The translations under genes were made by a program, and so were the position numbers. A stretch of DNA of 64,000 nucleotides from an uncultured bacterium (GTDB lineage Bacteria; Patescibacteriota; Minisyncoccia; Phycocordibacterales; Phycocordibacteraceae), in contig CAIJZI010000005.1 in the NCBI GenBank assembly GCA_903825105.1, positions 18,821 through 82,820 of the forward strand. The letters are read 5' to 3'. Shown here piece after piece: positions 3,484 through 61,259 of the stretch (position 1 is its first letter; each line of letters opens with the position of its first letter). The notes under the pieces are model-generated. The model worked only from the letters and a program-made list of their open reading frames with translations, did no database searches and was not told the DNA's origin.

Positions 3484-5202
3484 ATGTTTCCGCTTCACGA
3501 CTCACTTGATAAAAATCTTCGAGAAGAATTGTCAGCATATGACGACTTAACTTCTGCACTCCTCGCGAGGCGTGGCATTTTAAAAAAAGAAGAGGCAGAA
3601 AAATTTTTGAATCCTTCGTACGATCTGCATCTCCACGATCCTTTTTTAATGACAGACATGAGAAAAGCTGCAGAGAGATTCGCCGATGCGATTTTAAAAG
3701 GGGAGAGGATCGCCGTGTGGAGCGACTATGACTGCGACGGTGTCCCGGGCGCCGTTATCCTCCACGATTTTCTTAAAAAGGTTGACGCGAATTTTGAAAT
3801 ATATATTCCGCATCGCCACGATGAAGGGTATGGGATGAATGTTGAGGGGATAGAAAAGCTTGCTTCAAATAAGGTAAAACTTATTGTCACCGTCGATTCT
3901 GGGATCACCGATCACGAGCCCGTCTCGCGTGCAAAAGAATTAGGGATTGATGTGATTATTACCGACCATCATTTACCTAAAGAAACATTGCCTGATGCAT
4001 ATGCCATTGTGAATCCGAATGCCAGAGCAGATGAAAAATATCCCTTCCATGAACTCTGTGGTTCTGGCGTCGCGTGGAAATTGGTGTGTGCTGTTCTTTT
4101 TATTTCTCCAACACTCCGAGAAAAAGCTCCGCTTGGTTGGGAGAAATGGCTACTTGATATGGTCGGGCTCGCGACCATTGCCGACATGGTCTCACTCACA
4201 GGAGAAAATCGCGTGCTCGCTACATATGGATTAAAAGTGCTGCGGAAGTCGCCACGAATTGGATTCCAAAAATTGTGTAAAGTGATGCGTGTGAATCAGC
4301 GCCAAATTACCGAAGATGATGTCGGCTTTATGATCGCGCCGCGCGTGAATGCTGCGAGCCGTATGGGTGACGCGTTTGATGCTTTTAAAATGTTTATCAC
4401 TAACGATGAGGGAGAGGCTGAGCTACTCGCGAGTAAATTAGAAAAAATAAATAAACAAAGAAAGGTTGAAGCGGGCGTCATCACGCGCGCCGTGCATACA
4501 AAGTTAAAAGAAAAAAGTGAAATAAGAAATGTCATTGCACTCGGTGATCCGGAGTGGCGGCCAGCACTTCTCGGGCTCGTCGCGGGAACCATCGCAGACG
4601 AATATGAGCGGCCTGTATTTTTATGGGGAAGGGAAGGCAACAATACTTTTAAAGGGTCGGTGCGGAGCGGGAGTGTGCACGCACTCGAGCTGATGCAGGC
4701 AGCTGAAAAAACTTTTGTTGAATTCGGCGGTCACTCAGCAGCCGGCGGTTTCACTGTGCGAGATGACGCGATATTTTTTCTCGAAGATAAATTAGTTGAA
4801 GCATATGAGCGCCTTCCAAAAAAAGAAGAGGTGGATGATATTTCTAATTATGCTGATGCAGTGATCACTCCTGAAGAAGCGAATGAATCATTTTTAAAAA
4901 AGATTGAGAAGCTGTCTCCATTTGGTATGCAAAATGCGAAGCCCGTGTTCCTGCTCCGCGAGATTGTCGTGAGAGAGATTTCACGCTTTGGAAAAGGGAA
5001 GGAACATTTAAAATTAAAAATCAGTTCGCGAGATAAAAATAATAAAATTGATGCGGTCACCTTTTTTGTAAAAGGGAATATTGCGCGCACCATTGAGACT
5101 ATTCAACCAAACGGCGTCGCGACCATTCTCGCGCATCTCGAGCGCGACACCTTCAGCTATGGCAACCCCGTCCGCTTGCGCCTTTTGGATATCAAACTAT
5201 AG
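3484..5202 (+). CDS. recJ: single-stranded-DNA-specific exonuclease RecJ
   Basis: DHH motifs (DYDCDGV, VDSGITDH, ITDHH) and DHHA1-like C-terminus; track ORF begins at TTG 3439, first ATG at 3484. Confidence 0.85.
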   Translation: MFPLHDSLDKNLREELSAYDDLTSALLARRGILKKEEAEKFLNPSYDLHLHDPFLMTDMRKAAERFADAILKGERIAVWSDYDCDGVPGAVILHDFLKKVDANFEIYIPHRHDEGYGMNVEGIEKLASNKVKLIVTVDSGITDHEPVSRAKELGIDVIITDHHLPKETLPDAYAIVNPNARADEKYPFHELCGSGVAWKLVCAVLFISPTLREKAPLGWEKWLLDMVGLATIADMVSLTGENRVLATYGLKVLRKSPRIGFQKLCKVMRVNQRQITEDDVGFMIAPRVNAASRMGDAFDAFKMFITNDEGEAELLASKLEKINKQRKVEAGVITRAVHTKLKEKSEIRNVIALGDPEWRPALLGLVAGTIADEYERPVFLWGREGNNTFKGSVRSGSVHALELMQAAEKTFVEFGGHSAAGGFTVRDDAIFFLEDKLVEAYERLPKKEEVDDISNYADAVITPEEANESFLKKIEKLSPFGMQNAKPVFLLREIVVREISRFGKGKEHLKLKISSRDKNNKIDAVTFFVKGNIARTIETIQPNGVATILAHLERDTFSYGNPVRLRLLDIKL

Positions 5203-5209
5203 TTAATTT

Positions 5210-5632
5210 ATGAATTTTACTATCAATGCCGACGGGGGATCGAGAGGTAATCCGGGAGCTTCAGGAGTTGGCGCGACGATTCGCGATGAGTCAAATACCA
5301 TTGTCGCGACGGTCTCAAAATTTCTTGGCACGCACACCAACAATTTTGCTGAATATGAATCCGTCATTCTCGCTTTTGCAGAGCTCTCAAAAATTGTTCC
5401 GGTTGGGAAAAGAGGCGAGACAAAAGTGATAGTGAAGATGGACAGCGAACTTGTTGTGAAGCAAATGCGTGGCGAGTACAAAGTAAAAAATGCGGATTTA
5501 AAAGAGCAGTACGCACGACTTCTACAAAACATCGGCGCATTCGGGAATGTTTCATTCACTCATGTGCGACGCGAATTAAATAGCGACGCCGACGCGCTCG
5601 CAAACGAAGCGATGGATCGCGGCGCGCATTAG
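5210..5632 (+). CDS. rnhA: ribonuclease HI-like protein
   Basis: 140 aa; N-terminal INADGGSRGNPGASGVG and acidic catalytic residues layout of RNase H type 1. Confidence 0.8.
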   Translation: MNFTINADGGSRGNPGASGVGATIRDESNTIVATVSKFLGTHTNNFAEYESVILAFAELSKIVPVGKRGETKVIVKMDSELVVKQMRGEYKVKNADLKEQYARLLQNIGAFGNVSFTHVRRELNSDADALANEAMDRGAH

Positions 5633-17106: not shown

Positions 17107-17847
17107 TTACACCTTCTCACTTACACCTTCTTTTACTCCTCTCCTAACATAGAGCTCTTGTAGTGTGCCGACGATATTTGTTGTGATGAAGTAGAGCGCC
17201 ACCGCTCCTGAGGTTGTGTACGAAATAACAGCAATAAGAAAGGGGAAGACATACTTTAATTGCATTCCCATCATCTGTTGGAATCCTGCCTGCATTCCGC
17301 TTCCGTCTCCTGATGGCTTCATGGTCCCCGAGAGGGCGAAATGTGCTTGAAGGAATTGTGTTACGCCAGCCAAAATCGCCAACAAAATACTTTTCCCTGC
17401 GACAGAAATTATTCCTAAAAATTCTAGAGAAATGGTGTGTGGAATTGGTGTTATCGCGTACAATCTCGCTGTGTTTATAACAGAAAATGGTTCATAGCAA
17501 AAAACCCAATAGAGTGCGAGGAGGACTGGAATTTGAATAAACACCGTTAGAATACTCGCGAAGGGATTCACTTTTGCATCTTTATATAAAGCGAGTGTTT
17601 CTATAGCTTCTTTTTCTTTATCGCCCTTGTGCTTTTCTTTTAATTCTTTTAATTTAGGTTCCAGGACTTTCATCGCGCGCTGTGTTCTGACTGCCGACAA
17701 AGAGAAGGGGAGGAGAATCAAACGAATGATGATAGTGATGAGAATAACCGCGACACCCACATCGCCTTTTGGAATAAAAGCGACAAGCGCTACGAGAGCG
17801 TTATATATCGGATTATAAAAAACGGCGTGAAAAAAAGCTGAAATCAC
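17107..17847 (-). CDS. yidC: membrane protein insertase YidC (short form)
   Basis: 246 aa, YNPIYNALV...IRLILLPF...KVNPF motifs of YidC/Oxa1; in rpmH-rnpA-yidC cluster. Confidence 0.85.
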   Translation of the reverse strand: MISAFFHAVFYNPIYNALVALVAFIPKGDVGVAVILITIIIRLILLPFSLSAVRTQRAMKVLEPKLKELKEKHKGDKEKEAIETLALYKDAKVNPFASILTVFIQIPVLLALYWVFCYEPFSVINTARLYAITPIPHTISLEFLGIISVAGKSILLAILAGVTQFLQAHFALSGTMKPSGDGSGMQAGFQQMMGMQLKYVFPFLIAVISYTTSGAVALYFITTNIVGTLQELYVRRGVKEGVSEKV

Positions 17848-17865
17848 AGGTGGTTGGATTAATTT

Positions 17866-18168
17866 TTATATTTTAGAAATAAGATCTATGAGTTCTTTTT
17901 CTATATCCTGATAGTGTACACCCTCTAGTTTAGAACGCGAAAAAACAATAAGCGATGGTGGTAATTTCTGTTTTTTGAGAGCTCCGATGATGCGCCGCTT
18001 TATTTTATGCCTGTCGACAGAGAGCTTGGCTACCTTTTTGGGCACCACAACAGCATATCCTGCCACCTCTTTAGAAACAGTGGCGGTAAAGTGGGTAGAA
18101 GAGAATCTGCGCCCTTTTAGTACGAGAGGGAATGTTGCTCGCGTCAGCCTATAACTGCGCTTAAACAC
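17866..18168 (-). CDS. rnpA: ribonuclease P protein component
   Basis: 100 aa basic protein, position between rpmH and yidC, RnpA-like KLSVDRHKIKRR. Confidence 0.85.
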   Translation of the reverse strand: MFKRSYRLTRATFPLVLKGRRFSSTHFTATVSKEVAGYAVVVPKKVAKLSVDRHKIKRRIIGALKKQKLPPSLIVFSRSKLEGVHYQDIEKELIDLISKI

Positions 18169-18172
18169 GGGT

Positions 18173-18310
18173 TTAGACGGCTAAACTGGCCCTTCCTGCT
18201 CTTCGTCGCCCTTTTATAATCTTACGGCCAGAACTGGTTGCCTTTCGAGCAAGAAATCCATGCGTCGTTGCGCGCTTCTTTTTCTTTGGTTGGTAGGTTC
18301 TTTTTGGCAT
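18173..18310 (-). CDS. rpmH: 50S ribosomal protein L34
   Basis: [45 protein letters not shown]; track ORF trimmed to ATG at 18310. Confidence 0.85.
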
Positions 18311-18401
18311 ATTAAATAGGTGTTTATCCACACATAGTACCAGATTCTGCACAAAACACCATTTTGTCCTAGTTTTATGAAAAGAGTATACTCTGGGCAC
18401 G
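18311..18401. promoter_or_regulatory. oriC / divergent promoter region between rpmH and dnaA with perfect DnaA box TTATCCACA at 18324..18332
   Basis: consensus 9-mer read directly; classic rpmH|dnaA location. Confidence 0.6.
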
Positions 18402-19754
18402 ATGGACAAGAGAAATTTACAGGAACTTTGGGAACATGTTTTGACTCAAGTTGAACTTTCTATATCTCCTGCGAATTTTAATACTTGGTTTTGTAACAGT
18501 TTCATTGTGAAGGTTACTGAAGATGGGGTAGTCCACATTGGTGTTCCAAGTCAGTTCTTCAAGGATTGGTATATGAAAAAGTTTCATACGCTCTTATTGA
18601 AAATCCTCCGTGACATTTCTTATGAGTTCAGAAACATTGAATACGCAATAGTGAAAGATGAGCGGAGAAAAGTTTTAAAAGAAACAAAGAAAGTTTCTGG
18701 CGCGATGGAGCTTCCGTTAAATGAATTTTATATTAATAAGAGCGATAACCTAAATCCGCGCTATACCTTCGATACTTTTGTTGTTGGGTCTTTCAACGAG
18801 CTTGCCTATACCGCTGCTCAAGCCGCACTCAAACGCCCTGGCATAACCTATAACCCACTTTTTATTTATGGAGATACTGGGAGAGGGAAGACGCATTTAA
18901 TACAGGCGATTGGTAATCAATTTAAAAAACAGTTCAACAGCCAAAAAGTTTTTTATCTTACTTCTGAAAAGTTTGCTATTGATTATACGGACTCTGTTCA
19001 AGCCGGAACGGCGAATCGTTTTAAAGACAAATATCGTCAGTACGATCTTCTTATTATGGATGATGTGCAGTTTCTTTCTAAAAAAGAAAAGACCCAAGAG
19101 GAACTCTTTCATTTGTTCAATGCTTTATACGATACCAATAAGCAAATTATATTCTCATCTGATCGTTCTCCTGTCGCCATTCCAGATATCGCAGAGCGCT
19201 TAAAAGGGAGACTTGCTAGTGGAATGACAGTTGATATTAGTGAGCCAGACACTGAATCTCGTATGGCGATTATTCAAAAAAAGGCGGCATTACACGGGTT
19301 TATGCTCTCAAATGATGTTGTTGAGTATGTGGCGACCTCTATAACAGGATCTATTCGTGAACTTGAAGGGATGATAAATAATATTGTCTGCCACGCCCAA
19401 GCGAAAGGGTATGCGCCAGATATTGCTGAAGTGAGACAGTCGCTTCGATCCTTCACTCGTCCACAAAAAACAATTTCGATTAAAAATGTTGTGGATAAAG
19501 TTGCTGAATTTTATGGAATTGATGAAGAGAGTATTTATGAAAAGACGCGACGAAGGGAAGTGGTGCGTCCACGCCAGGTGATTATGTATCTTCTTCGAGA
19601 AGATTTTAATATTTCATATCCAACCATTGGTTCAAAACTTGGCGGACGCGATCATACAACCGTTATCCACTCTTGTGAAAAAATAAAGCGTGAAATAGTT
19701 GGGGATGCAGATCTATCTAAAGATATACAGAGTATAAGAGCCCTACTTGTATGA
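18402..19754 (+). CDS. dnaA: chromosomal replication initiator DnaA
   Basis: 450 aa, AAA+ Walker [12 protein letters not shown]-terminal DNA-binding domain. Confidence 0.9.
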
Positions 19755-19877
19755 TACCTTTCAACACACTATCAACAGGTTTAGGGTATAATGAAGAAAG
19801 AAAGAAGCTTGTATTTAATGGTTATTTTTTACTTCTCCACATATCAACACCCTTAATAGAAACATCATAAGAATTTT

Positions 19878-20978
19878 ATGAATATTTCAATAAATAAAAA
19901 ATTATTCTCAGAGGCTGTGCATATCGTCTCACGATTCTCTGATAAGAAAAATACAACACTTCCAGCACTCTCTTCTATTCTTATTATTGCGAGTGATGGG
20001 GAGATAAAAATGAGAGCTACAAACCTAGAAATAGGAGCGGATTTAAAAATTAATGGAAATATAAAAAGTGAAGGTGTTGTCGCTGTACCATCCTCGCTTT
20101 TACAACAAATAGCGAATTCTTTGTCAGGAGAAGGGGATATAACACTCGAACACACAGGAAATATTGTTTCGCTTACGAGCGGATCAGGAAAAAGTTCAAT
20201 AAAAACAACACTATATGAAGACTTCCCATCAATTCCTTTCCCAGAAAATACAAAAGGAAGAATGGTTATACAGGGTGTAATTCTAAAAAATATATTCACT
20301 TCAGTGGCGTCATGTGCCTCTTTGTCTACTATTCGTCCAGAACTCGCTAGTGTGTATATGACGATAGAAGGAGGTGCTTTAACAGCTGTTGCTACAGATT
20401 CTTTCAGACTTGTGGAGAAAAAAGTTCCTCTTGTTAACAAAGGTACTCAAGGAAAATTCCTTATTCCTGCAAAAAATGCTCTTGAAATAGCACAAATCCT
20501 ACCTGATGAAGAAATCATTGTGTCTTTTGACGAGCATCAATGCGCTTTTGTTAGTCCAAAAGGAATGTTCGTTTCGCGATTAACAAATGCAATCTATCCA
20601 GACTACAGACAAATCATTCCAAAAGAATCAGTGGCAGAAGCTGTGGTGTTACGAAAAGATTTTGAAACAGCTCTCAAACAAACAACCATCTTTTCTGACT
20701 CATTCCAAAAAATTCGTTTAGGTTTCGATCCAAAAAAGAATCAACTCTCTTTCTTTGCGAAGAATAATGATGTGGGAGAATCGTCCGAAACAATACAAGC
20801 GCGTATTTCTGGTGGTGCTATTGAATTATCTTTTAATCATAAATACCTAAACACCGCATTATCAATGTCATTAAATGATAGTATTTCTCTATCCTCAGCT
20901 GGAATTGGGCGACCACTTATAATCAAAGGGGTAGGGGACTCATCGTTGCTTTATCTCGTTTCCCCAATGAATCAGTAG
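19878..20978 (+). CDS. dnaN: DNA polymerase III beta sliding clamp
   Basis: 366 aa three-domain clamp, follows dnaA. Confidence 0.9.
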   Translation: MNISINKKLFSEAVHIVSRFSDKKNTTLPALSSILIIASDGEIKMRATNLEIGADLKINGNIKSEGVVAVPSSLLQQIANSLSGEGDITLEHTGNIVSLTSGSGKSSIKTTLYEDFPSIPFPENTKGRMVIQGVILKNIFTSVASCASLSTIRPELASVYMTIEGGALTAVATDSFRLVEKKVPLVNKGTQGKFLIPAKNALEIAQILPDEEIIVSFDEHQCAFVSPKGMFVSRLTNAIYPDYRQIIPKESVAEAVVLRKDFETALKQTTIFSDSFQKIRLGFDPKKNQLSFFAKNNDVGESSETIQARISGGAIELSFNHKYLNTALSMSLNDSISLSSAGIGRPLIIKGVGDSSLLYLVSPMNQ

Positions 20979-27559: not shown

Positions 27560-27657
27560 ATCAATAATAATACACGGATACAGCGGCTCGATAAGTGCGA
27601 TTTGACAATAGTGTTGATTTAAGTATTATTAATTTTGGAAACAGAAGGGGTAATCTG

Positions 27658-28510: not shown

Positions 28511-30872
28511 AGAATTACAAAAGAAAATAGTGCTCCTTGATACGCATGCGATAATCCATCGCGCTTATCACGCCTTACCGCAGGATTTTACGGGCCCAAA
28601 TGGTGCCCCAACCGGCGCTTTGTACGGTCTTGTTTCGATGCTTTTAAAAATAATCACCGATCTCTCTCCTGATTATATCGTCGCGTGCTACGACCTGCCG
28701 AAGCCAACCATCCGTCACGAAGCGTATGCTGACTATAAGGGTACACGCACAAAAACAGATGATGCGTTGTCACTCCAGATTCAAGAATCGCGCAAAATCT
28801 TTGAAGTTTTTTCGATTCCACTGTATGAAAAAGAAGGTTTTGAGGCAGACGATCTGCTTGGCACCATTGCTTTTAAATTAAAAGAAGATAAAAATACACA
28901 AGTCATTATTGCTTCGGGCGATATGGATACGCTCCAGCTCGTCGAAGGTAAAAAAGTGTGTGTTTACACGCTAAAAAAGGGCATACACGACACTATTTTG
29001 TATGATGAAAAAGCGGTAGAAGCGCGATTTAATTTCTCACCGACGCTTATTCCTGATTGGAAAGGCCTCCGTGGTGACCCCTCTGACAACATAAAAGGTA
29101 TCCCCGGCATTGGAGAAAAGACGGCCACTGAACTCATAACCAATTTCGGTTCAATTGAGAAAATATATACTGTCCTTAAAAAAGGAGATGATGCATTTAT
29201 AAAAAAAGGAATTAAAACGCGTATCATCACTCTCTTAAAAGAACACGAAGAAGATGCGCGATTTTCAAAATCGCTCGCGACGATTCGGCTCGACGCGCCG
29301 ATCGCATTTCATTTGCCCGAACACTCGTGGCGCGAGTCGGTTCATATAGAAAAAGTTTTTAACATTTTTGATGAATTTGGATTTAGATCGCTTCGAGAGC
29401 GAGCGCGCACAACGCTTGGTGTTCGTGAGCGAGAAGATTTTGTCGAGCCAGAACCAGAAATGGTAGACGCTACTCATTTTTCTGAAGCGCAGATTATGCT
29501 CTGGCTTATTTCTTCAGAATTTACGAACCCTTCGCTTGATGACATTCTCGCTTTTACCAAAGAGCGCACCTTTGATCCAGCTTATAAAGAACTTTTTAAA
29601 CAAATATCAGAAGAAGGGGAGATGCTCGAGGTATACGAAAAAATAGAAAAGCCGCTCATACCGATCGTGCGAGCGATGACCATTTGTGGCATTTCTGTCG
29701 ATCCGGAAGTTTTAAAAGATTTGTCAAAAAAATATGGCGCAGAACTCGAGCGCCTCGAAAAAGAAATTTATAAAATCGCTGGTCACGAATTTAATATTAA
29801 TTCGCCACAACAACTCGGCGTGGTGCTCTTCGATGAATTAAAAATAATTCCCGAACGGCAGAAAAAGACGGCGGGTGGTGCGCGCTCAACGCGCGAGAGC
29901 GAGCTCGAAAAAATTCGTGAAGCAAACCCTATTGTCCCAGCAATTCTTGATTACCGAGAATTGAAGAAACTCCTCTCCACCTATATTGAAAATCTCCAAC
30001 ATTTACTTGATGAAAATGGTCGTCTCCACGCAGAATTTATACAGACCGGTACAACAACAGGGCGCCTCACTTCACAAAATCCAAACCTTCAAAACATCCC
30101 GATCCAATCAGAGCGCGGGCAGGCAATACGACACGCTTTTGTCGCATCTGAAGGATATAAACTCGTATCGCTAGATTATTCACAAATAGAACTACGAATC
30201 GCAGCGATTCTTTCGGGTGATGAAAACTTGTGCGAAATATTTCGTGCCAGTCGCGATGTTCACACTGAAGTTGCTGCACGCGTATTTCATGTGTCGTCAG
30301 AACAAGTAGATGCTGAGATGCGTCGAAGAGCCAAGGTAATTAACTTCGGTATTCTTTATGGAATGGGCATAAACGCACTTCGCGCGCAGTTAAAGACTAC
30401 TACTGCAGAGGCGCATACCTTCTATGAAGAATACTTTGAACAATTTAAAACGCTGTCAGACTATCTCGAGAGCACTAAAGGCTTTGCGCGTAAAAATGGC
30501 TATACCGAAACGCTTTTTGGTCGTCGTCGCCAATTCCCGGAGATGAAATCAACTCTTCCTTATGTGCGCGCTCAAGCAGAGCGAATGGCGATTAATGCGC
30601 CGATACAAGGAACCCAAGCAGACATCATTAAGCTCGCGATGGTACGCGTACACGAAATGCTGGAGAAAAAATATAAAAAGAGCGACGCGAATCTTCTCCT
30701 TACTGTGCACGACGAATTGGTATATGAAGTCCGCGACGCGCTTGTAGAAGAAATCAGTGATGAAATTAAAAAAATTATGGAATCCATTTTACCTCTTGAA
30801 GAAACGCGTGGCGTCCCGCTTATCACAACGATGAAAAAGGGCCCGAACTGGGGCTCAATGGAAACAGTATGA
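28503..30872 (+). CDS. polA: DNA polymerase I
   Basis: 789 aa; 5'-3' exonuclease N-domain and family A polymerase motifs (DYSQIELR, RRxxKxxNFGxxYG, HDE). Confidence 0.9.
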   Translation: MTKELQKKIVLLDTHAIIHRAYHALPQDFTGPNGAPTGALYGLVSMLLKIITDLSPDYIVACYDLPKPTIRHEAYADYKGTRTKTDDALSLQIQESRKIFEVFSIPLYEKEGFEADDLLGTIAFKLKEDKNTQVIIASGDMDTLQLVEGKKVCVYTLKKGIHDTILYDEKAVEARFNFSPTLIPDWKGLRGDPSDNIKGIPGIGEKTATELITNFGSIEKIYTVLKKGDDAFIKKGIKTRIITLLKEHEEDARFSKSLATIRLDAPIAFHLPEHSWRESVHIEKVFNIFDEFGFRSLRERARTTLGVREREDFVEPEPEMVDATHFSEAQIMLWLISSEFTNPSLDDILAFTKERTFDPAYKELFKQISEEGEMLEVYEKIEKPLIPIVRAMTICGISVDPEVLKDLSKKYGAELERLEKEIYKIAGHEFNINSPQQLGVVLFDELKIIPERQKKTAGGARSTRESELEKIREANPIVPAILDYRELKKLLSTYIENLQHLLDENGRLHAEFIQTGTTTGRLTSQNPNLQNIPIQSERGQAIRHAFVASEGYKLVSLDYSQIELRIAAILSGDENLCEIFRASRDVHTEVAARVFHVSSEQVDAEMRRRAKVINFGILYGMGINALRAQLKTTTAEAHTFYEEYFEQFKTLSDYLESTKGFARKNGYTETLFGRRRQFPEMKSTLPYVRAQAERMAINAPIQGTQADIIKLAMVRVHEMLEKKYKKSDANLLLTVHDELVYEVRDALVEEISDEIKKIMESILPLEETRGVPLITTMKKGPNWGSMETV

Positions 30873-38193: not shown

Positions 38194-38226
38194 TTGGAAA
38201 CAGGGTCTTTTTGAAAGGGGCATGAA

Positions 38227-40407: not shown

Positions 40408-41517
40408 TTGGCGTTATACTGTTTAGTAATGCATTCAGTTTTTCTTGAACGAGTCAGATCTCAGTTTACGCCACCGCGTTATTTGACTTTTCCTTTTTCA
40501 GGAATTGAACTTTCGGCGAGTGGTGTGAAAGCTGTTCGTCTTGAAGAAACCCCGCATGGTTTTGTGCTCGCAAAATTTGTAGAAGAGCGGTTCCCGTCTG
40601 GAACTTTTGTTGAGGGAGAGGCGGTTGATGGCGATTTGATTATTGAAAAAATAATTACTGCAGCAAAAGCTACTGGCATCTCTTCGGCGAATATAGCATT
40701 GCCAGAATCGAAGTCATTTATTTTTGAAACAACGACGCAAGGAGTTTCTGATGATGAATTGCGTATCGGAGTAGAACAACATCTCGATGAGTTGATACCT
40801 TTACCACCCGCTGAAACAGCCTTTGATATATTAAAGATCGGTAATGACGACCGTGGAAATGTTCGTGTGGCTGGAATCGGCGTAGCAGAGAGGGTTGTAG
40901 ATGACACTCTTCTCTTGTTCGACAGTGCGCGTATAGGTGTACAAGCAATCGAAGAAGAAACATTTGCGATGGCTCGCGCCCTTCTCCCAAATGGCGACCA
41001 GTCAGTTTCCCTGATTATTGATATAGGCAAAACAACAACAAAAATCGTAATTGTGGATAAACGAATCCCGCGGTTCTCCAAAACAATCAATGTTGGTGGG
41101 CATTCATTTACGCTCGCCATTCAAAAATATTTTGGTGTTACAGAAGAAGAAGCGCGAAAGGTGAAGGCAGAACACGGCATTGTTTCGACAGAAGGGAATG
41201 AAGAATACCTATCAGCGATGCTTTCAACTGCGTCTGCGATTCGAGATGAGATTTCTAACTGTATAGAGTATTGGCAAGGGAAAACACGGAATGACCAATC
41301 TTGTGAACCTATAGCGCGAGCCATTCTTTCCGGGGGAAACGCTTCGGTAAAAGGGTTGCCAGAATATTTTAGCGGCACACTTAAAATGCCGGTGGTTTCT
41401 GGAAATGTTTTTACTAATTTTGCATCCAGCGATACATGGATTCCACAACTTACTTACGAAGAATCACTTTCTTACACAACAGCAATCGGATTGGCATTGT
41501 ATGACAGCTCCAAATAA
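40408..41517 (+). CDS. pilM: type IV pilus assembly protein PilM (actin-like ATPase)
   Basis: 369 aa; FSGIELSASGVKAVRL start and actin-fold glycine motifs; followed by pilN/pilO-like genes. Confidence 0.75.
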   Translation: MALYCLVMHSVFLERVRSQFTPPRYLTFPFSGIELSASGVKAVRLEETPHGFVLAKFVEERFPSGTFVEGEAVDGDLIIEKIITAAKATGISSANIALPESKSFIFETTTQGVSDDELRIGVEQHLDELIPLPPAETAFDILKIGNDDRGNVRVAGIGVAERVVDDTLLLFDSARIGVQAIEEETFAMARALLPNGDQSVSLIIDIGKTTTKIVIVDKRIPRFSKTINVGGHSFTLAIQKYFGVTEEEARKVKAEHGIVSTEGNEEYLSAMLSTASAIRDEISNCIEYWQGKTRNDQSCEPIARAILSGGNASVKGLPEYFSGTLKMPVVSGNVFTNFASSDTWIPQLTYEESLSYTTAIGLALYDSSK

Positions 41518-50242: not shown

Positions 50243-50327
50243 ACAGCTCTTGACTCAAAGCATGCGTCATACTATGATGCTGGTATAAGAGCCCGCAGGG
50301 CTTTTTTAATTACCGAACATTTCTTCT

Positions 50328-51071: not shown

Positions 51072-51088
51072 GGTAAAGTCTGAATATT

Positions 51089-51508
51089 ATGGCTACCGTA
51101 GTTAAAAAGATTAAATTACAGATTCAAGGCGGCGCAGCGACTTCTGCTCCTCCTGTTGGCACCGCGCTCGGTCCTGCTGGCGTGAACATTGGTCAGTTCG
51201 TGTCTCAATTTAACGAGGCGACTAAGGACAAAAAGGGGATGGTGATCCCGATCGAGCTCTCGGTCTACGATGATCGCTCATTTACCTTCATAATGAAGAA
51301 CCCGCCAGCCTCACGATTGATTCTCAAGGCGCTTGGTCTCGAGAAGGGGGCGAATAAGCCACGAGAACAAAAAGTGGGCACGCTCACGAAGGCGCAGGTA
51401 GCGGAGATTGTGAAAGAAAAAATGCCCGATCTTAATGCGAGCAGCCCAGAAGCAGCCGCGAAGATTATCGAAGGGACAGCAAGATCGATGGGGATTGATG
51501 TGAAGTAA
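51089..51508 (+). CDS. rplK: 50S ribosomal protein L11
   Basis: [26 protein letters not shown]. Confidence 0.9.
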
Positions 51509-51522
51509 GAAACATTTAGAAA

Positions 51523-51562
51523 AAGCAAACGCGGCGGCCTCTGGCCGCCGCGTTTGCTTTTT
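51523..51562 (+). terminator. intrinsic terminator aagcaaacgcggcggcc-tctg-gccgccgcgtttgctt + TTT
   Basis: 17-bp stem; directly after rplK, no rplA follows. Confidence 0.7.
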
Positions 51563-51619
51563 GTCTCTCCAGCGCGTAGAGTCGATTTGGATAGTTCCAA
51601 AAATACAAAGGAGTTTATC

Positions 51620-53008
51620 ATGGCAGATGAAAGGATTTTAGGTTTGAATCATGCAGTGCGCGAGTTCCCAGGCGGATTCGTGCTTGTCCTCAACACCGGC
51701 GCAATTATCACACCCGAAGCAGAAGCGATGCTCCAGGCACTTCATTCGTGCTCGACAGGTGGTATCCGCGAGCATCTGAACACACTCGCGAACAAAGGCG
51801 CCGAGAAGTTCATGGAAAGCTTCTATGTCGGCTATGGGCACAAATCGATCGGCGATTGTGGCACGACCACAATCTTCATCGAGGGCGTGTCCATGCTGGT
51901 CGCTAAAGCGATTCAAGACTGGCTGCTCTATTCTGGTCAGGAAGCATCGACGCGATACATCGATTTCTCGAAACAGCGGTTCGTTGACCCAGTCGGTTCG
52001 GAGGAATCTAAACGGATTCTCGAAGAGTGGCGTACATTCTATCTCGCGTCTCAAGAACCGGTACGGGAGCATCTGCGCAAGCAGTTCCCGCGCAATGAAG
52101 GAGAAGACGAGGTAGTGTACGAGAAGGCAATCAAAGCGAGAAGTTTCGACATCTTGCGCGGATTTCTTCCGGCCGGCGCCTCGACCAATCTCGCGTGGCA
52201 CACTAACCTGCGCCAAGCAGCGGATCACCTGATGCTTCTTCGGCATCATCCGCTCGCTGAAGTTCGGATGGTCGCAGAAGCGATCGAGGAAGCGCTCAAA
52301 GAAGCACATCCAAGTTCATTCGTGCACAAGCGGCACGGAGAAACCGAGAGCTATAACAGCTTCTGGATGAACAACCTGTACTACTTCCTTGGCGATCCAG
52401 GAGATGAAAGTCCTCTGGTCGCCAACACTGCCGACAGTTTCTTTATGGCGTATAACTCAATCAATTCGCATTCTCTTGCAGAATACGAACTGATGATGAG
52501 AAACCGCCCACCAAAAACAGAACTGCCGAAACAGATCGCTGAAGCTGGCATGATGCAGTTCGAATTCCTCATCGACTTCGGCTCATTTCGCGATATTCAG
52601 CGTCAACGCTCAATCATTCAGCGGATGCCGCTGGTCACTGCAAGATTCGGCATGCATCCGTGGTATCTCGAATCTTTGCCGAGTTTAGAGAGAATCGACG
52701 CTGCGTTTCTTATTCAGGCGCAGATCGACGAGATCGCACAACTCGAAGCCTCTGCAGAAGTTCGGCAGTACTACTATCCGATGGGGATGTGTGTGCCGTG
52801 TCGGGTAACCGGGGATCTCGCAGCGCTTGTTTATGTGGTAGAGCTGCGGGCGCAAAAAGTTGTCCACCCAACACTTCACGAAGTGGCGCTGAAAATTGCA
52901 GACCATCTTTTGATCTGCTTCAAGAATCTCGGGCTCAAGTTATATATCGATCGCGAACAAGGGCGGTTTGATGTAAAGCGCGGGCTCCACGACATTGTTC
53001 AAAAATGA
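51620..53008 (+). CDS. thyX: ThyX-like FAD-dependent thymidylate synthase, unusually long (two ThyX-like halves)
   Basis: ARSFDILRGFLPAGASTNLAWHTNLRQAADHLMLLR and C-terminal GDLAALVYVVELRAQKVVHPTLHEVALKIADHL resemble ThyX core repeated; ATG 51620 after AAGGAG. Confidence 0.5.
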   Translation: MADERILGLNHAVREFPGGFVLVLNTGAIITPEAEAMLQALHSCSTGGIREHLNTLANKGAEKFMESFYVGYGHKSIGDCGTTTIFIEGVSMLVAKAIQDWLLYSGQEASTRYIDFSKQRFVDPVGSEESKRILEEWRTFYLASQEPVREHLRKQFPRNEGEDEVVYEKAIKARSFDILRGFLPAGASTNLAWHTNLRQAADHLMLLRHHPLAEVRMVAEAIEEALKEAHPSSFVHKRHGETESYNSFWMNNLYYFLGDPGDESPLVANTADSFFMAYNSINSHSLAEYELMMRNRPPKTELPKQIAEAGMMQFEFLIDFGSFRDIQRQRSIIQRMPLVTARFGMHPWYLESLPSLERIDAAFLIQAQIDEIAQLEASAEVRQYYYPMGMCVPCRVTGDLAALVYVVELRAQKVVHPTLHEVALKIADHLLICFKNLGLKLYIDREQGRFDVKRGLHDIVQK

Positions 53009-53097
53009 ACATTCAAGCGACGGTTTCGGCCGTCGCTTTTCTTTTGTCATTTTTATGTGTACACTCGACTTCGGATAGTTCTAAAAACGGAGGCTGT

Positions 53098-53736
53098 ATG
53101 GTGGCTGATTATGTGATTTTCGATGGAATGGATGGAAGCGGGAAGGGGACACAGATAGAACTTCTGAAGAAAAAATTCGGGGATTCAGTCGTGTTTACTC
53201 GTGAGCCGGGCGGTACGCCGTTTGCTGAGGATATACGAAAAGTTATCCTCGACAATCCGCTCGCTGGGGAATCGACTGCGCTCAACAACCTTTTGCTTTT
53301 CTTTGCAGCACGGGAGGAATTGCAAAAAAATCTTGTCGTTCCATCTCGTAAAGCGGGGAAGACCGTGTTTTCTGATCGCGGCGACTCATCAACATTTGCA
53401 TTTCAACTTTACGGAGAAATGCACACAGAATTCCTGAGCACATTTCGATTTTTAAGAAATGTGGTGTTTGGGAATTATTTCCCAAACTTGTACATCATCT
53501 TTGATTTGCCAGCCGAGACTGCTCGTAAACGAGTTATGAACGATGCGAATCGTGCGCCGAATCATTTTGATGTTCGTGGCTTGGATTACTATACGAGAGT
53601 CCGAGAAGGATTCCGTGCTTTTGAGAGATTCGCGCCGGTAGAATTCGTCAGTGCGACTCAGACAGCAGAAGAGGTACATGAGTCTGTGCTCGCGATTCTC
53701 GCAAGAAGACAGATCTTTCCAATCGGCGCGCCATAG
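53098..53736 (+). CDS. tmk: thymidylate kinase
   Basis: IFDGMDGSGKGTQ P-loop, TREPGGT, LID region; ATG 53098 after ACGGAGG. Confidence 0.85.
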   Translation: MVADYVIFDGMDGSGKGTQIELLKKKFGDSVVFTREPGGTPFAEDIRKVILDNPLAGESTALNNLLLFFAAREELQKNLVVPSRKAGKTVFSDRGDSSTFAFQLYGEMHTEFLSTFRFLRNVVFGNYFPNLYIIFDLPAETARKRVMNDANRAPNHFDVRGLDYYTRVREGFRAFERFAPVEFVSATQTAEEVHESVLAILARRQIFPIGAP

Positions 53737-53769
53737 GCGCGCCGATTTCTTTTTGCTACACTCTTAAGA

Positions 53770-55609: not shown

Positions 55610-57346
55610 ATGAAAGAATTTGTCATCGATACTGACGACGAAGAAGCTTTAACAAAAATCGCGAATGGCTTGTACGAATCAGAAAAGAGAATTGCAATCG
55701 AACAAGGTCGTGGCGCAGAAGTAGAAAGAATCGGAGGTGGCGAAGGTGTTATTGAGAAATATAAAGAAGCAGTACATGAAAAGCGCGATATTCAAAAAAA
55801 GACACTCTCATCGTGGCTCGATTATTTAAAACAAAACGATGCCAACTATCCGACCTGGTTCCGCTATTTTGTTGTGCGCAATCTTGAGAAAATGGGCACG
55901 CTCGATAAAGAAAAAGGCGAATACACCAAGCGCAATGATTACACTGTCGCGCCATTCCCAGAAATTAATTCTGAAGCGCTCGGTTTCGTGTATCGAATGC
56001 TCACGACTGGTATCGGTCATCAAGAATTTGTTAACGAGCCAGAGAAACGCGAACAGTTGACACAACTTATCTCGAAAAAAGATTTTATTAAGCTCTACAC
56101 CTTCGCACAAATTGAAACCGCCGGCTCTTTGAATCGCGAATCAATGCAAGGCGAATGGGTAAAATATGATAAAGGTTCTGACTACCACATTCTCGAAAAT
56201 TCTCTTCGGGGGAAGGGTACTGGTTGGTGCACTGCCGAGGGAAGCGCCTCAAGTCATCTCCAAGGCGGCGACTTTTATGTTTATTATTCTCGTGGGAATT
56301 CAGGCACCTACAGCGAACCGCGTGTCGCGATTCGCATGGAAAATAATCAGGTTGCCGAGGTGCGCGGGGTGAATCATCGCCAAGAATTGGAACCAGCACT
56401 CGTCGATGTCGCCACAGAGAAATATCATTCCCTCCCCGGAGGAGAAAAGTTTGATAAAAAGTCTGCTGACATGAAAAAAGTAACAGAATTAGTAAAGAAA
56501 CAAGAAAAGGGCGAGCAGTTTAATAAAGATGATCTTGTTTTTCTTTATGAACTCAATGCGCTGATAGAATACTTCGGTTACGATAAAGACCCACGCATAA
56601 AAGAACTTCGCGATACGCGCGATACAAATGCTGACCTGCCAATTATCTTCGACTGCGCGCCAGAAGATGTCGCACATTCTGTTTCAGAAATTAGAGAAAC
56701 TACAAAAGCGTATGTTGGAAAACTTGAGTCGGGGATATTTGATGTGCTTCCGAGAGAGATTGAACATGTCTATACAAAATTCCCAGAAGAGCGAATGAAG
56801 TTTCATAACAATATCGAACTTGGCACAGGAATTAAAGATGGTAGTGAATTTCAAAAAACTATAGAAGAACAGGAGATGAGAGTTTCGACATACGCAGCGC
56901 AAATACTTAAAAGTCCGGATTTTAAAGTTCTGGCCGAAAATGAAAACATAGATCTCATTGAAGTATCGGTGCGTGCGCTCGGATTTGAAAAGTTGGCGAG
57001 ATATGAAGATATTTGTAAGAGAGCAAAAGAGCTCGGGCTTGAACTCTGCCCAGCTGAAGTAGGACCACAACTTCGTTTGCAGTATAAAGATCAACCGATG
57101 GGCGAATGGCTAATTGTAGCGATGAATGCAATTAGCGGCTCGGACGGTAACCCGAAGCTCTTCGATGTGGATCGGCTCGACGACGAGTTGTGGCTGAACG
57201 GCAACGATGGGAGGCCTGACAACGAGTGGAATCCCGAGAATCCTTTCGTATTTCTTCGTCCCCGCAATTCTCACCACACACTTTTAGCGAGACCGCCAAT
57301 GATTGGCGGTCTTGTTTTTTATGTTGACGCGCATTCTCGTAACTGA
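55610..57346 (+). CDS. large hypothetical cytoplasmic protein (578 aa)
   Basis: no TM, no family recognised; upstream of RelB/RelE pair. Confidence 0.4.
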   Translation: MKEFVIDTDDEEALTKIANGLYESEKRIAIEQGRGAEVERIGGGEGVIEKYKEAVHEKRDIQKKTLSSWLDYLKQNDANYPTWFRYFVVRNLEKMGTLDKEKGEYTKRNDYTVAPFPEINSEALGFVYRMLTTGIGHQEFVNEPEKREQLTQLISKKDFIKLYTFAQIETAGSLNRESMQGEWVKYDKGSDYHILENSLRGKGTGWCTAEGSASSHLQGGDFYVYYSRGNSGTYSEPRVAIRMENNQVAEVRGVNHRQELEPALVDVATEKYHSLPGGEKFDKKSADMKKVTELVKKQEKGEQFNKDDLVFLYELNALIEYFGYDKDPRIKELRDTRDTNADLPIIFDCAPEDVAHSVSEIRETTKAYVGKLESGIFDVLPREIEHVYTKFPEERMKFHNNIELGTGIKDGSEFQKTIEEQEMRVSTYAAQILKSPDFKVLAENENIDLIEVSVRALGFEKLARYEDICKRAKELGLELCPAEVGPQLRLQYKDQPMGEWLIVAMNAISGSDGNPKLFDVDRLDDELWLNGNDGRPDNEWNPENPFVFLRPRNSHHTLLARPPMIGGLVFYVDAHSRN

Positions 57347-57363
57347 TACACTTTTGGAACAGT

Positions 57364-57881: not shown

Positions 57882-60800
57882 ATGCCCGAGAAATCAGAAG
57901 TAGCAAAAAGAGAAGAAAAAATCCTAGAATTCTGGGAGCGCGAGCATATCTTCGAAAAGTCGATCGAGAAGAAATCACCCAAAGGAGAATTCGTTTTTTA
58001 TGAGGGGCCGCCAACGGCAAATGGGAAACCGGGTATTCATCACCTTGAAAGTCGCGCGTTTAAAGATGCGATTCCGCGATATAAAACAATGCGTGGCTAC
58101 CGTGTTGACCGCCGTGCGGGTTGGGACACACATGGACTACCAGTCGAATTGCAAGTTGAAAAAGAGCTCGGCTTTAATGGAAAACCCGACATAGAAAAGT
58201 ACGGCATCGCAGCATTTAATAAGAAATGTCGCGAAAGCGTTTTTGTTTATATCGATCAATGGGAAAAATTTACGAAACGCATGGGGTATTGGGTCGATGA
58301 GGATAAAGCATATTTCACTTTCGATAATTCATATATGGAAGTGCTCTGGCACCTCTTCGCGAAGACTTCAAAAGATGGCCGACTGTATAAAGATTATAAA
58401 GTAGTGCCATGGTGTCCACGCTGTGGAACAGCGCTTTCTTCACACGAACTCGCGCAGGGCTACGAAGATGTTAAAGATCTTACTATCACGGCCAAATTTG
58501 AATTAATTGATGAACCAGGGACATATCTCCTCGCATGGACGACAACGCCGTGGACTCTGCCGGGTAATATCGCGCTCGCGGTTGGCGAGAATATTGAGTA
58601 TGTAGAGATTCTTGTAGAAAATGAAAAATACATTCTCGCTAAAAATCGTCTCCCAATTATCACCACCCCATACACTATTCAGAAAGAGTTAAAAGGGAAA
58701 GATCTTGTTGGTAAAAAATATAAGCCACTCTACGATGTTGCAAAAAGTGTTGCGGCAGAAAGTGAAAAAGCAAAATTTGATAAAGCGTTTCAGGTTTATG
58801 CTGCAGACTTTGTAACGACTGAAGAGGGGACAGGGATCGTTCACACTGCAGTGATGTATGGGCAAGAAGATTTTGAATTGGGAAATAAAATTGGGTTACC
58901 TAAAGTACATTTGGTAAATCCAGAAGGAAAATTTATTGAAGGGGTGGGCGTTCTCGCCGGCTGCTCGGTTGTCGAAGAACAAACATCAGTTGAAATACTA
59001 AAAGATCTGTCCGAGCGAAATATCCTTTTCAAAAAAGAACCCTACACACACAGTTACCCATTTTGTTGGAGGTGTAAAACACGGCTTATCTATTATGCTC
59101 GTGATTCGTGGTATATACGTATGTTTGACCTGCGCGAAAAGCTTGTTGCAGAAAATAAAAAGATACACTGGGAGCCAGAGTATATTCGCGATGGTCGCAT
59201 GGGCGAGTGGCTCACCAACGCAAAAGATTGGGCTATTAGCCGCGAACGCTATTGGGGGACACCATTGCCGATTTGGCGCAGTGCGGATGGAAGTGAGCAA
59301 GTCGTCATCGATTCTGTCGATGATCTTAAGAAATACACCAAAAAATCGGGGAATAAATATTTCGGGATGCGCCACAGCGGGACTGAATATAATGCGAAGT
59401 ATATCGCGAGCGCGACAGCGACGGCCCCAGACCATGTCACCGAAGCAGGGAAGGATGGTATTCGCGCAGCAGCCGAAAAGCTCAAAGACAAAAAAATAAC
59501 AAAAATAATCTGCTCACCTTTTGTGAGAACAAAAGAAACGGCAGAAATCGTGGCGAAAGAAATCGGTTACCCGATTGATCAGATTGTTGTTGATGAGAGA
59601 ATTCGCGAATACAACTTCGGTGATTTTGATCAGAAATCACGCACTCTTTATGATGTGTGGCGAAAAGAGAATCCAGATTTATCTGTGGCGCCTCCACACG
59701 GAGAGTCATACGCTGATGCAAGACGGCGCGCAGCTGAATTTATGTATGACACGGAGCAAAAGTATCAGAATGAAAATATTCTCTTTGTCTCGCACGGCAT
59801 TGTATTTGAAGCACTCCCGTCCGTTCTCCGTGGTGATGATGCGAAAACAACCAATGAAAAATGGGGCGCAGATTTTTTACATTGGGCAGATGTGAAAGAA
59901 TATAATTTTGTTCCACTTCCGCACAATGATGACTATGAGCTCGATTTGCACCGGCCATATATCGACGAGGTCATTTTAATTTCAGAAAAGGGAACTGAAC
60001 TGCGAAGAGTGAAGGAGGTGATGGATGTGTGGTTTGACTCTGGTGCGATGCCCTTCGCACAATCAGCAAAAGAACGCGGAGATGAACCACTCGAGTCTTT
60101 CTTAAAAAAAGTTGAATACCCAGCTGACTTTATATCAGAAGCAATTGATCAAACGCGTGGCTGGTTCTACACCCTCCTTGCAGTCGGAACGCTCTTTGGG
60201 CGTGACGCCGCTTTTAAAAATGTTATTTCACTCGGACACCTTCTTGATGCAGAGGGCCAGAAAATGAGTAAATCAAAAGGAAATGTTGTCGATCCGTGGG
60301 CCGAGATGGATAAGTGGGGTGTTGATACTCTGCGCTTTTGGATGTACAGCGTCACTCAAGCTGGCGATTCTAAAAATTATGATCAAAAAACAGTCAAAGA
60401 AGCGGCGAGAGTGCTCACTTGGATAGAAAATAGTGTAAAGTTTTATGAATTATTTAAAACCGAAACAGCAAATGCTTCTGTCTCTACAAATGTGTTAGAT
60501 AAATGGATCGATGCGCGTACAGAAGAGACTGTTTCGATTGTTGAAAGTGCTATGGATGAATATCGTTTATTTGAAGCGACACGCGCGATTGCAGATCTCA
60601 CAGGTGATCTCTCTCAGTGGTATGTTAGACGCGTTCGTGACCGTGTGCGAGATGGAGACGCGACAGCAATCGAGACTCTTCGAAGAACCTTAAGAACTTT
60701 AGCTCTCATTTTGGCTCCGTTCGCTCCGTTTATCGCCGAAGAGGTGTTCCAAGAGGTGCGTGAAGAGGGCGATCCAGAGAGTGTGCACCTCGCTGGTTGG

Positions 60801-61259
60801 CCCTCCTCCGCCAAGGCTTCGAAGGGCACAGCCTGGTTTCCCAATATTTTCTCGAAAGAAACCAATGACAATTTAATTGCCGAAATGCAAAAAGTGCGTG
60901 CGCTCGCTTCAGAAGCATTACAGCTACGCCAAAAGTCAGGAATGAAAGTGCGTCAACCACTCGCTTCGCTCACGGTCCCTACGCAGCTCTCTGAAGAGTT
61001 GGCGGCAATTCTCGCTGATGAAGTAAATGTAAAAAAAATAATCGCAGGCACTGAATTGGCGTTAGACACTGCTCTTACCCCAGAACTTATTAAAGAAGGC
61101 GACGAGCGCGAGCTGTCGCGTGCGGTCGCTGAGGCGAGAAAGACAGAAGGGCTCTCCCCGCGTGATAAAGCGCATGCAGAAATGAGTGAGGAAGGGAAGT
61201 ATGAAGTGACACTATCTACCGGTGTCGCTCACTTCAATCTGGTCAGAGATGCGGCATAA
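57882..61259 (+). CDS. ileS: isoleucine--tRNA ligase (type 2) with inserted histidine-phosphatase-like domain
   Basis: [16 protein letters not shown] region, KMSKS, editing domain; about 170 extra aa (approx 59310..59945) with RHSG / [10 protein letters not shown] / VSHG motifs. Confidence 0.8.

Follow-up and report, generated by a model that had tools for sequence, protein, structure and literature searches.

The consecutive genes thyX and tmk of the deoxythymidine monophosphate (dTMP) pathway are preceded, in an uncultured Paceibacteria-like member of the Patescibacteria, by closely similar sequences of about 23 nucleotides (nt). Both genes lie in a 64-kb stretch of contig CAIJZI010000005.1, called the window below, whose numbering is used throughout. 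The two sequences are probably the start-site-proximal halves of similar sigma-70-type promoters, and a box within them, GGr..GTWC (r, A or G; W, A or T), would co-regulate the deoxythymidine triphosphate (dTTP) pathway at initiation. Within the sequence examined, the cis element is restricted to this pathway: it is found before linked genes and not before unrelated genes, and it is kept across species. As judged by comparison of sequences, it is a real, conserved, pathway-linked and promoter-proximal element. Promoters of this type appear almost only at dTTP genes in related groundwater Patescibacteria with tiny genomes, which suggests a co-regulation that is undescribed and fairly ordinary. 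The preliminary description of this DNA had proposed an operator or promoter element co-regulating the pathway. In outline, the association with promoters and with the pathway stands; the notions of a separate upstream site and of a dyad as its core do not.

Two similar copies within predicted promoters

The two copies, TCGATTTGGATAGTTCCAAAAA upstream of thyX and TCGACTTCGGATAGTTCTAAAAA upstream of tmk (Table 1), are identical in 20 of 23 columns (87%) of an alignment with one gap, in agreement with the likeness of about 87% first claimed for them. From the TT onward, 18 nt (TTYGGATAGTTCYAAAAA) run without a gap between the copies, and 16 of these are identical. When the 70 nt upstream of each of 75 open reading frames (ORFs) in the window were compared all against all by local alignment, the thyX/tmk pair ranked first of 2,775 (score 21; next 16; mean 7.6, standard deviation 1.6). 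No third copy of the full motif, with at most 3 mismatches, occurs in the window, and none of 100 shuffles matched at all. Nor is this a dispersed intergenic repeat, such as a repetitive extragenic palindrome or a miniature inverted-repeat element: there are exactly two copies in 64 kb, and no repeat family contains them.

That two AT-rich upstream regions should resemble each other by chance is scarcely conceivable, with the pair about 8 standard deviations above the mean of upstream pairs, no match among the shuffles, and related boxes at orthologous positions in about 20 genomes. What chance does account for is the short cores, which occur in the window about as often as expected: GGATAGTTC with at most 1 mismatch has 13 matches (11 expected) and GGANNGTWCY has 4 (4.6 expected). 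The significance of the motif is in its long identity and its promoter context, not in short cores.

The order of elements is the same at both genes: the terminator of the preceding gene, -35 and -10 hexamers, the motif, a Shine-Dalgarno sequence (SD) and the ATG. The predicted promoters are of the sigma-70 type, and each is interlocked with the terminator before it. The 3' arm and tail of the rplK terminator overlap the -35 of thyX, and the tail of the thyX terminator doubles as the -35-like hexamer of tmk. Since the first base of the motif is the last base of the -10, the motif covers the discriminator, the predicted start and the first 15 or so transcribed bases, which by prediction include GGATAGTTC(C/T)AAAAA. 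The motif spans about -7 to +16 of the predicted promoter, i.e., it is the downstream half of the promoter itself. It had been placed 15 to 35 nt before the two start codons, which is roughly right: the actual distances are 17 to 38 nt from the ATG of thyX and 11 to 33 nt from that of tmk. The ATG of thyX is supported by the fact that ThyX homologs align from residue 1 of the 462-residue product.

We infer transcription to start at the GG 7 to 8 nt past the -10. A start about 7 nt after the -10 is supported by glyA and ileS of relatives, which are of a leaderless type, with the -10 hexamer 6 to 8 nt before the ATG. Many genes, among them glyA, ileS, rplK and an RNase H-like gene, show a -10-like hexamer (often TAGGAT) 6 to 10 nt before the ATG and no SD, which suggests that leaderless mRNAs are common in the clade. 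Such sites were seen at L096:12000-12130, L092:3835-3900, L082:4040-4101 and L088:5215-5256 in related loci (designated by L numbers) and at 5198-5212 and 51074-51091 in the window.

Promoters elsewhere in the window share parts of this anatomy. That of rplK uses the same -35 and -10 types (TAAAGT at 51074-51079) without a downstream box, and TACACT, the predicted -10 of tmk, is also the -10 of a TTGACG-N17-TACACT promoter at 57324-57352. There may be a second recurring start-site motif: TGGAAACAG or TGGAACAG begins 2 to 6 nt past the -10 (TATTAT, TATATT, TACACT) of three other predicted promoters, at 27636-27644, 38195-38203 and 57355-57362, and one of the three is upstream of the long ileS leader region.

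The module in related genomes

The comparison set consisted of 80 thyX loci from species-representative genomes and 15 from contigs encoding the nearest homologs of ThyX or Tmk. Specificity was assessed over the window and about 190 kb of flanks from close relatives; the regulon was drawn from flanks of about 4 to 10 kb. The close clade is made up of loci whose ThyX is at least 67% identical, with the gene order rplK-thyX-(dcd or deoxycytidine monophosphate [dCMP] deaminase)-tmk-(dut/glyA/argS).

About 20 related loci carry the module TTGCTT-N17-[GCGCG]TAsAGT-N6-7-GGr..GTWC, with 0 to 5 bp between GG and GTWC, followed by an A/C-rich, unstructured leader and then the ribosome-binding site. When upstream regions are aligned by their -10, all the complete ones of thyX in the close clade show TTG(C/T)nn with exactly 17 bp between it and the TA(C/G/A)nGT downstream, and GG(A/G) follows the -10 after 6 to 7 nt, with GTTC after that. 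The hexamers and their 17-bp spacing recur in most dcd modules and in several tmk modules; (G/A)GCG(C/T)G stands right before the -10 in most thyX and dcd modules of relatives and in some of tmk. The dcd and dCMP-deaminase genes have the same module with GTAC replacing GTTC.

A GT[TA]C box 9 to 22 nt past the -10 was present at 16 of 17 thyX promoters, 9 of 10 for dcd, the single dCMP-deaminase promoter (1/1), that of the short Thy1 paralog (1/1), and 7 of 15 for tmk. Chance would give about 9% per promoter, and control promoters from the same loci gave about 12% (over a wider interval), which is about chance. Conservation upstream of orthologs, on which the original proposal was to be judged, is nearly complete for thyX and partial for tmk, and in the window the motif is unique to the two genes. 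Neither of the outcomes that were to count against the proposal, occurrence at many unrelated sites or lack of conservation at orthologs, was observed.

Other patterns give the same picture. The combination of a -10, N5-8 and GG[AG]NNGTWC has 16 matches in 188 kb, of which 12 precede thyX, dcd, tmk or Thy1 genes with an SD and 4 are inside coding sequence. In the close clade, TTGnnn..GCGyG-TAnnnT occurs at these pathway genes only. The sequence GTTC[CT]AA, 20 to 40 nt before a start codon, is nearly confined to thyX and tmk, even in the distant L051 and L053 (ThyX 55-57% identical), which have TTGACC-N17-TAGCGT-gc-GGATAG-acca-GTTCTAA. The box holds its position relative to the -10 (11-16 nt away) and not to the start codon (about 20-49 nt away). 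It has a compact form of fixed spacing in the window (GGATAGTTCC and GGATAGTTCT) and its nearest relatives (GGACTGTTCC at thyX of L089 and GGACCGTTCC at dcd of L095); the dcd box of L088 and L007 is GGACTGTACC.

Some elements in the relatives are symmetric in their own ways. At dcd and dCMP-deaminase promoters, the downstream box and the -10 region form an inverted repeat, GTACAG(T)-N8-10-(A)CTGTAC, 22 bp overall (L082:2579-2617, L083:3738-3776, L088:2025-2063 and L092:1890-1930). This is not simple hairpin covariation, because the right arm is unchanged even where the -10 reads GTAGAGT. In distant lineages, tmk and thyX are divergent neighbours separated by spacers of 47 to 75 nt with symmetric elements of their own: CTTGGATACGGA-AG-TCCGTATGCAAG in L009 (3915-3990) and paired TTAATCAT boxes in L015, L018 and L023. 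These may be lineage-specific shared operators or mirror-image promoters.

Mechanism and history

At both genes the promoter adjoins the intrinsic terminator of the gene before it, and because each promoter comes directly after a terminator, thyX and tmk would be separate transcripts. Transcription would begin at the GG about 7 nt past the -10, and the GGr..GTWC box would act on the DNA at initiation. It could do so in two ways: (a) a regulator binds an operator overlapping the start site and represses by occluding RNA polymerase, or (b) RNA polymerase responds directly to the GG start and the first transcribed bases, which would tune initiation or escape. The first is slightly favoured, because the box is pathway-specific and stands on genes that are non-homologous but functionally linked. 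The second would suit a regulator-poor genome, yet it leaves the pathway-specific GTWC without explanation. A more far-reaching proposal is that there exists a dedicated, undescribed dTTP regulon (thyX or thyX-like genes, dcd or dCMP deaminase, and tmk), controlled through the start-site-overlapping GGr..GTWC either by a regulator or by nucleotide-sensing initiation intrinsic to the polymerase. This is possible, and we offer it tentatively.

Several observations weigh against initiation-level co-regulation through this box. From lineage to lineage, the spacing between GG and GTWC differs by as much as 5 nt, which sits poorly with one rigid protein-binding site; the core, GG plus GTWC, is low in information; and no regulator gene is conserved beside the cluster in the loci examined. 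It is on these three accounts that confidence is no more than moderate. Besides, about half of the tmk promoters of relatives are without the box. The -35 hexamers match the E. coli consensus TTGACA at only 3 of 6 positions, for which reason a generic promoter scan did not call the thyX and tmk promoters; these hexamers draw their support from the comparison with relatives. Finally, the enrichment statistics overstate significance because orthologous promoters are not independent.

Might the element be read instead as a symmetric operator, with a dimeric transcription factor recognising TTGGA-N4-TCCAA? The perfect dyad reported for the thyX copy is there, and extends to 6+6 nt (TTTGGA-TAGT-TCCAAA). 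The inner GGA-N4-TCC is kept in the thyX box of L089 and the dcd box of L095, TTGGA..TCCAA is kept, among the relatives, in L086 only, and L009 has a larger palindrome containing TTGGATAC between its divergent tmk and thyX. In the tmk copy, however, the dyad is broken by an extra C and by TCT instead of TCC. In L086 the arms are separated by 9 nt as against 4 in the window, half a helical turn apart. The dcd boxes of the GGACTGTACC type do not conform, and at thyX in most relatives the sequence is GGG/GGA..N7-9..TCC or finishes with GTTCA or GTTCG; most are without the outer arms. A symmetric operator is accordingly improbable.

The same dyad might be thought to operate in RNA, as a 5'-leader hairpin or as an mRNA site bound by a protein or a small RNA, controlling translation or stability. 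The thyX copy can indeed fold (-5.5 kcal/mol, z-score -2.8), and the C-to-T difference in the tmk copy would yield a G-U pair. By eye, GUUCC pairs weakly with the SD in some leaders, e.g., that of L006. The combination of a 5' GGA with the GGA of the SD may resemble CsrA-type site pairs. Yet the tmk copy folds poorly (-1.2 kcal/mol, z-score +0.2), and no compensatory changes were seen, so a conserved hairpin with covariation, as once envisaged, does not hold up. The 29 predicted leaders, each taken from the inferred start up to the ATG and 25 to 55 nt long, are no more structured than shuffles (z-scores around 0). Searched against Rfam, the region 51400-53300 gave in E-value mode only sub-threshold matches to a terminator hairpin, and the whole window at the gathering threshold gave 8 tRNAs only. 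Moreover, a start at GG would leave the outer 5' TTT arm of the dyad untranscribed, and the tmk leader would be only about 25 nt. An element in RNA is therefore very unlikely. Anti-SD pairing within the leader was also rejected, its registers being inconsistent by eye, and a covariance model built from sequence alone was dropped, the GTWC block being too variably spaced for alignment by MAFFT. Because the leaders are unstructured, Rfam has no match, the box is tied to the -10 rather than to the SD or the start codon, and most relatives have lost the outer dyad arms, we conclude that the conserved feature is read at the level of DNA and initiation, not as a hairpin.

That the two window copies are so exceptionally alike is most likely due in part to local copying, or gene conversion, between modules that lie side by side in this lineage. 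In general, modules of the same genome show no concerted evolution (mean score 13.7 for pairs within genomes, 13.2 between genomes). The window's thyX/tmk pair is the top within-genome pair, with a score of 26; thyX-dcd pairs reach 18 to 24. A discriminator that relatives do not conserve, CGAyTT, is common to its two members. In L086, where thyX and tmk are likewise adjacent, their upstream regions are dissimilar. In L089, the nearest relative by ThyX, thyX is flanked by a 30-nt exact direct repeat, TCTAAGACTCTCACCCGATTTGCTTTTTAT (L089:1-30 and L089:1528-1557), made up of the terminator 3' arm and the -35, from which it follows that copying between modules occurs in the clade. The L089 contig starts and ends in this repeat, which is probably an assembly break point.

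L095 has the order thyA-terminator-dcd-tmk, with a C-terminal fragment of thyA (L095:1-241; PF00303, 29.6 bits) in the place that thyX has in the window. The terminator that follows this fragment matches the window's thyX terminator at 28 of 29 positions (compared with 53009-53045). This looks like a non-orthologous swap of thymidylate synthases (thyA/thyX) in an otherwise conserved cluster and intergenic cassette. The dcd module of L095 is very like the window's thyX module, and its tmk module aligns end to end with that of the window. In the window lineage, dcd seems to have dropped out from between the terminator of thyX and the core promoter of tmk. The notion that the window's tmk module is an old dcd promoter fused to tmk is only half right: the terminator half matches the L095 terminator preceding dcd. 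A deletion of dcd is preferred because the core promoter and leader align with the tmk module of L095 itself. A long segmental duplication that included the terminator was also rejected, since the terminators alone score 16, a value that unrelated terminators also reach. The extra identity is most simply explained if the start region of tmk has to some extent been homogenised to resemble that of thyX.

It might be argued that such history is all there is, i.e., that a duplicated or gene-converted cassette of terminator and promoter has left an ordinary promoter at both genes, with no role in the pathway. The shared CGAyTT discriminator, the top score of the window pair, the L089 repeat, the absence of thyX/tmk upstream likeness in L086 despite the same gene order, and the like -35 and -10 of rplK all fit this account. 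Common descent alone is nonetheless unlikely. GG..GTWC has been kept at thyX, dcd, dCMP deaminase and a second Thy1 gene while ThyX has diverged to 55-74% identity and the flanks have been randomised. The genes that bear it are non-homologous and functionally linked, and control promoters have the box at about the chance rate. The terminator score gives no evidence of a long duplicated segment, and the tmk module of the window has its end-to-end counterpart in L095.

Gene neighbourhood and comparable systems

Table 1. Features of the thyX-tmk region of the window
Feature	Position	Strand	Basis or remark
rplK intrinsic terminator, stem GCAAACGCGGCGGCC / GGCCGCCGCGTTTGC with T-tail	51525..51562	+	terminator scan, hairpin scan, RNA fold (-47.7 kcal/mol, z-score -5.4)
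thyX predicted promoter, TTGCTT-N17-TAGAGT	51554-51582		sigma-70 type
thyX predicted -35, TTGCTT	51554..51559	+	17 bp before TAnnGT in relatives
GCGCG block, putative element	51572..51576	+	directly before thyX -10
thyX predicted -10, TAGAGT	51577..51582	+	TA(C/G/A)AGT kept here in relatives
Motif copy 1, TCGATTTGGATAGTTCCAAAAA	51582-51603	+	checked in sequence; last -10 base, discriminator CGATTT, start, box, A-run
Predicted start GG, thyX	51589-51590		within copy 1
thyX box, GGATAGTTCC	51589-51598		within copy 1
GTTC of thyX box	51594-51597		
thyX SD GGAG (51610-51613) and ATG (51620)	51610..51622	+	sequence
thyX, long form, 462 aa	51620..53008	+	Pfam PF02511 Thy1, 1.6e-20
thyX intrinsic terminator, AAGCGACGG tttc GGCCGTCGCTT with T-tail	53015..53042	+	terminator scan
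tmk -35-like TTTTCT	53037-53042		tail of thyX terminator
tmk predicted promoter, TTTTCT-N17-TACACT	53037-53065		sigma-70 type
tmk predicted -10, TACACT	53060..53065	+	anchored alignment
Motif copy 2, TCGACTTCGGATAGTTCTAAAAA	53065-53087	+	checked in sequence; last -10 base, discriminator CGACTTC, start, box, A-run
Predicted start GG, tmk	53073-53074		within copy 2
tmk box, GGATAGTTCT	53073-53082		within copy 2
GTTC of tmk box	53078-53081		
tmk SD GGAGG (53089-53093) and ATG (53098)	53089..53100	+	sequence
tmk, thymidylate kinase, 212 aa	53098..53736	+	Pfam PF02223 Thymidylate_kin, 1.2e-26
tmk terminator	53721-53747	+	terminator scan; argS next

The identities given to thyX and tmk in the preliminary description are upheld by Pfam. 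Upstream of the pair are secE-nusG-rplK, and argS and ileS lie downstream. Because dcd, dCMP deaminase, dut and glyA are all missing from the 64-kb window, thyX and tmk are its sole dTTP-pathway genes. ThyX of the window consists of an N-terminal Thy1 domain and a C-terminal half that is weakly Thy1-like, possibly the result of an internal duplication; the C-terminal half of the long-form ThyX of L096 likewise has a weak Thy1 match. The long-form thyX of L096 is split in two ORFs (L096:6344-7716 and L096:8950-9891 were examined), and L096 has a second, short canonical Thy1 gene (313 aa), divergent beside tmk and bearing a GGAACGTTCTAACC box. Homologs of ThyX number about 4,500, all from Patescibacteria (Kaiserbacteria, Paceibacteria, Parcubacteria), the nearest 74% identical; the closest relatives from the Joint Genome Institute (JGI) are at most 68% identical.

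Other parts of the window also attracted attention. Upstream of secE-nusG is a strong consensus promoter, TTGACT-N17-TATGAT (50250-50312), and within about 10 nt of it, ahead of the genes, a hairpin with a T-tract (AGAGCCCGCAGGGCTTTTTT). This arrangement is kept in L004, L005, L007, L008, L083, L086 and L096 and matched no Rfam family; it could be a leader, an attenuator or a very short RNA. The window's ileS (57882-61259, 1125 aa) has a histidine-phosphatase domain (His_Phos_1, residues 496-651) inside the catalytic domain of the class I synthetase, a Pfam pattern also found in L088 and L096. The origin region (17107-20978) contains yidC (17107-17847, -), rnpA (17866-18168, -), dnaA (18402-19754) and dnaN (19878-20978).

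To judge from its sequence and distribution, the element behaves as a promoter or operator motif specific to a regulon would, and is outside the families tested: DnaA, NrdR, Cheo/LexA, Rfam and dispersed repeats. A DnaA box had been considered from the likeness of TTTGGATAG to the reverse complement of TGTGGATAA. The motif's reverse complement (CTATCCAAA or CTATCCGAA) has 2 to 3 mismatches to TTATCCACA, where at most 1 was allowed, especially in the CACA part, and the sites of relatives are further off. The organism's own DnaA boxes have the canonical form. There is a perfect TTATCCACA shortly before dnaA (18324-18332), boxes with at most 1 mismatch are enriched in the window (27, 12 expected), and further sites are at 19490-19498 (-) and 41052-41060 (-). 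The NrdR box, a 16-bp palindrome (acaCwAtATaTwGtgt) that usually occurs in tandem, had one chance match at 29158 with at most 3 mismatches and none near thyX or tmk. The Cheo box of LexA, CGAAC-N4-GTTCG, had 25 matches in the window with at most 2 mismatches (35 expected), none at the two sites. Neither recA nor lexA nor nrdR was found in the 790 kb of sequence examined, and for want of recA and lexA there, a clade-specific SOS box is not derivable. Promoters of the sigma-54, extracytoplasmic-function (ECF) and sigma-28 types were rejected by eye, either for inconsistent spacing or for missing key bases.

Patescibacteria, or the Candidate Phyla Radiation (CPR), have very small genomes with few regulators and are not routinely cultured, and to our knowledge almost nothing is known of their transcription signals or regulation. 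The literature searched yielded no description of a promoter motif at thyX, tmk or dcd, nor of CPR promoters. The module would give the clade a promoter model (-35, -10, start site, and the distinction between leaderless and leadered genes) and a testable candidate regulon linking genes of DNA-precursor supply. It marks non-homologous, interchangeable enzymes (dcd and dCMP deaminase) and adjoins a slot that holds either thyX or thyA. Should a dedicated dTTP regulon be true, it would be among the first defined transcriptional circuits in bacteria with tiny genomes and few regulators. If this is merely a conserved promoter without a dedicated factor, it would still help in annotating transcription units and would be no surprise.

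How does the element compare with systems already known? The half-sites of LexA boxes (GTTC, GAAC and GTAC, as in the Cheo box, the alphaproteobacterial GTTC-N7-GTTC and the cyanobacterial RGTAC-N3-DGTWCB) resemble the two tetramers conserved in the dTTP modules: GTTC, and the GTAC that occurs in dcd boxes and in or near the -10. The tetramers here, however, are spaced 14 to 18 nt apart, as against 4 to 7 in LexA boxes. Repressor operators that overlap the transcription start include the NrdR boxes of nrd promoters and the DnaA boxes of nrdAB. Like them, the dTTP box overlaps a promoter and would coordinate genes of DNA-precursor supply, but it differs in sequence, and its targets are thyX, dcd and tmk, not nrd.

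A second group of comparable elements is part of, or abuts, the -35, the -10 or the start. PafBC binds the promoter of the RecA-independent DNA-damage response in mycobacteria. In acetogens, the Wood-Ljungdahl genes have a promoter motif activated by a TetR-family protein (PMC6873888). The dTTP module shares with both that placement, the linkage of its genes and conservation across species. It differs from them in that its box lies downstream of the -10, at and after the start, its sequence is unrelated, and it is known here by comparison alone.

Finally, there are elements that the polymerase reads directly: the discriminator, the core recognition element, which prefers G(+2), effects of the initial transcribed sequence, and the GTP-initiating, growth-rate-controlled promoters of B. 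subtilis. The dTTP box resembles these in its position (-6 to about +15) and its conserved GG at the predicted start, and such a reading makes a dedicated regulator unnecessary in a tiny genome. Most relatives have a GC-rich discriminator in their dTTP modules, as do promoters read in this fashion. We know of no polymerase-recognised element that corresponds to the conserved GTWC at about +6 to +12, and whereas the elements read by polymerase are generic, the dTTP box is restricted to one pathway.

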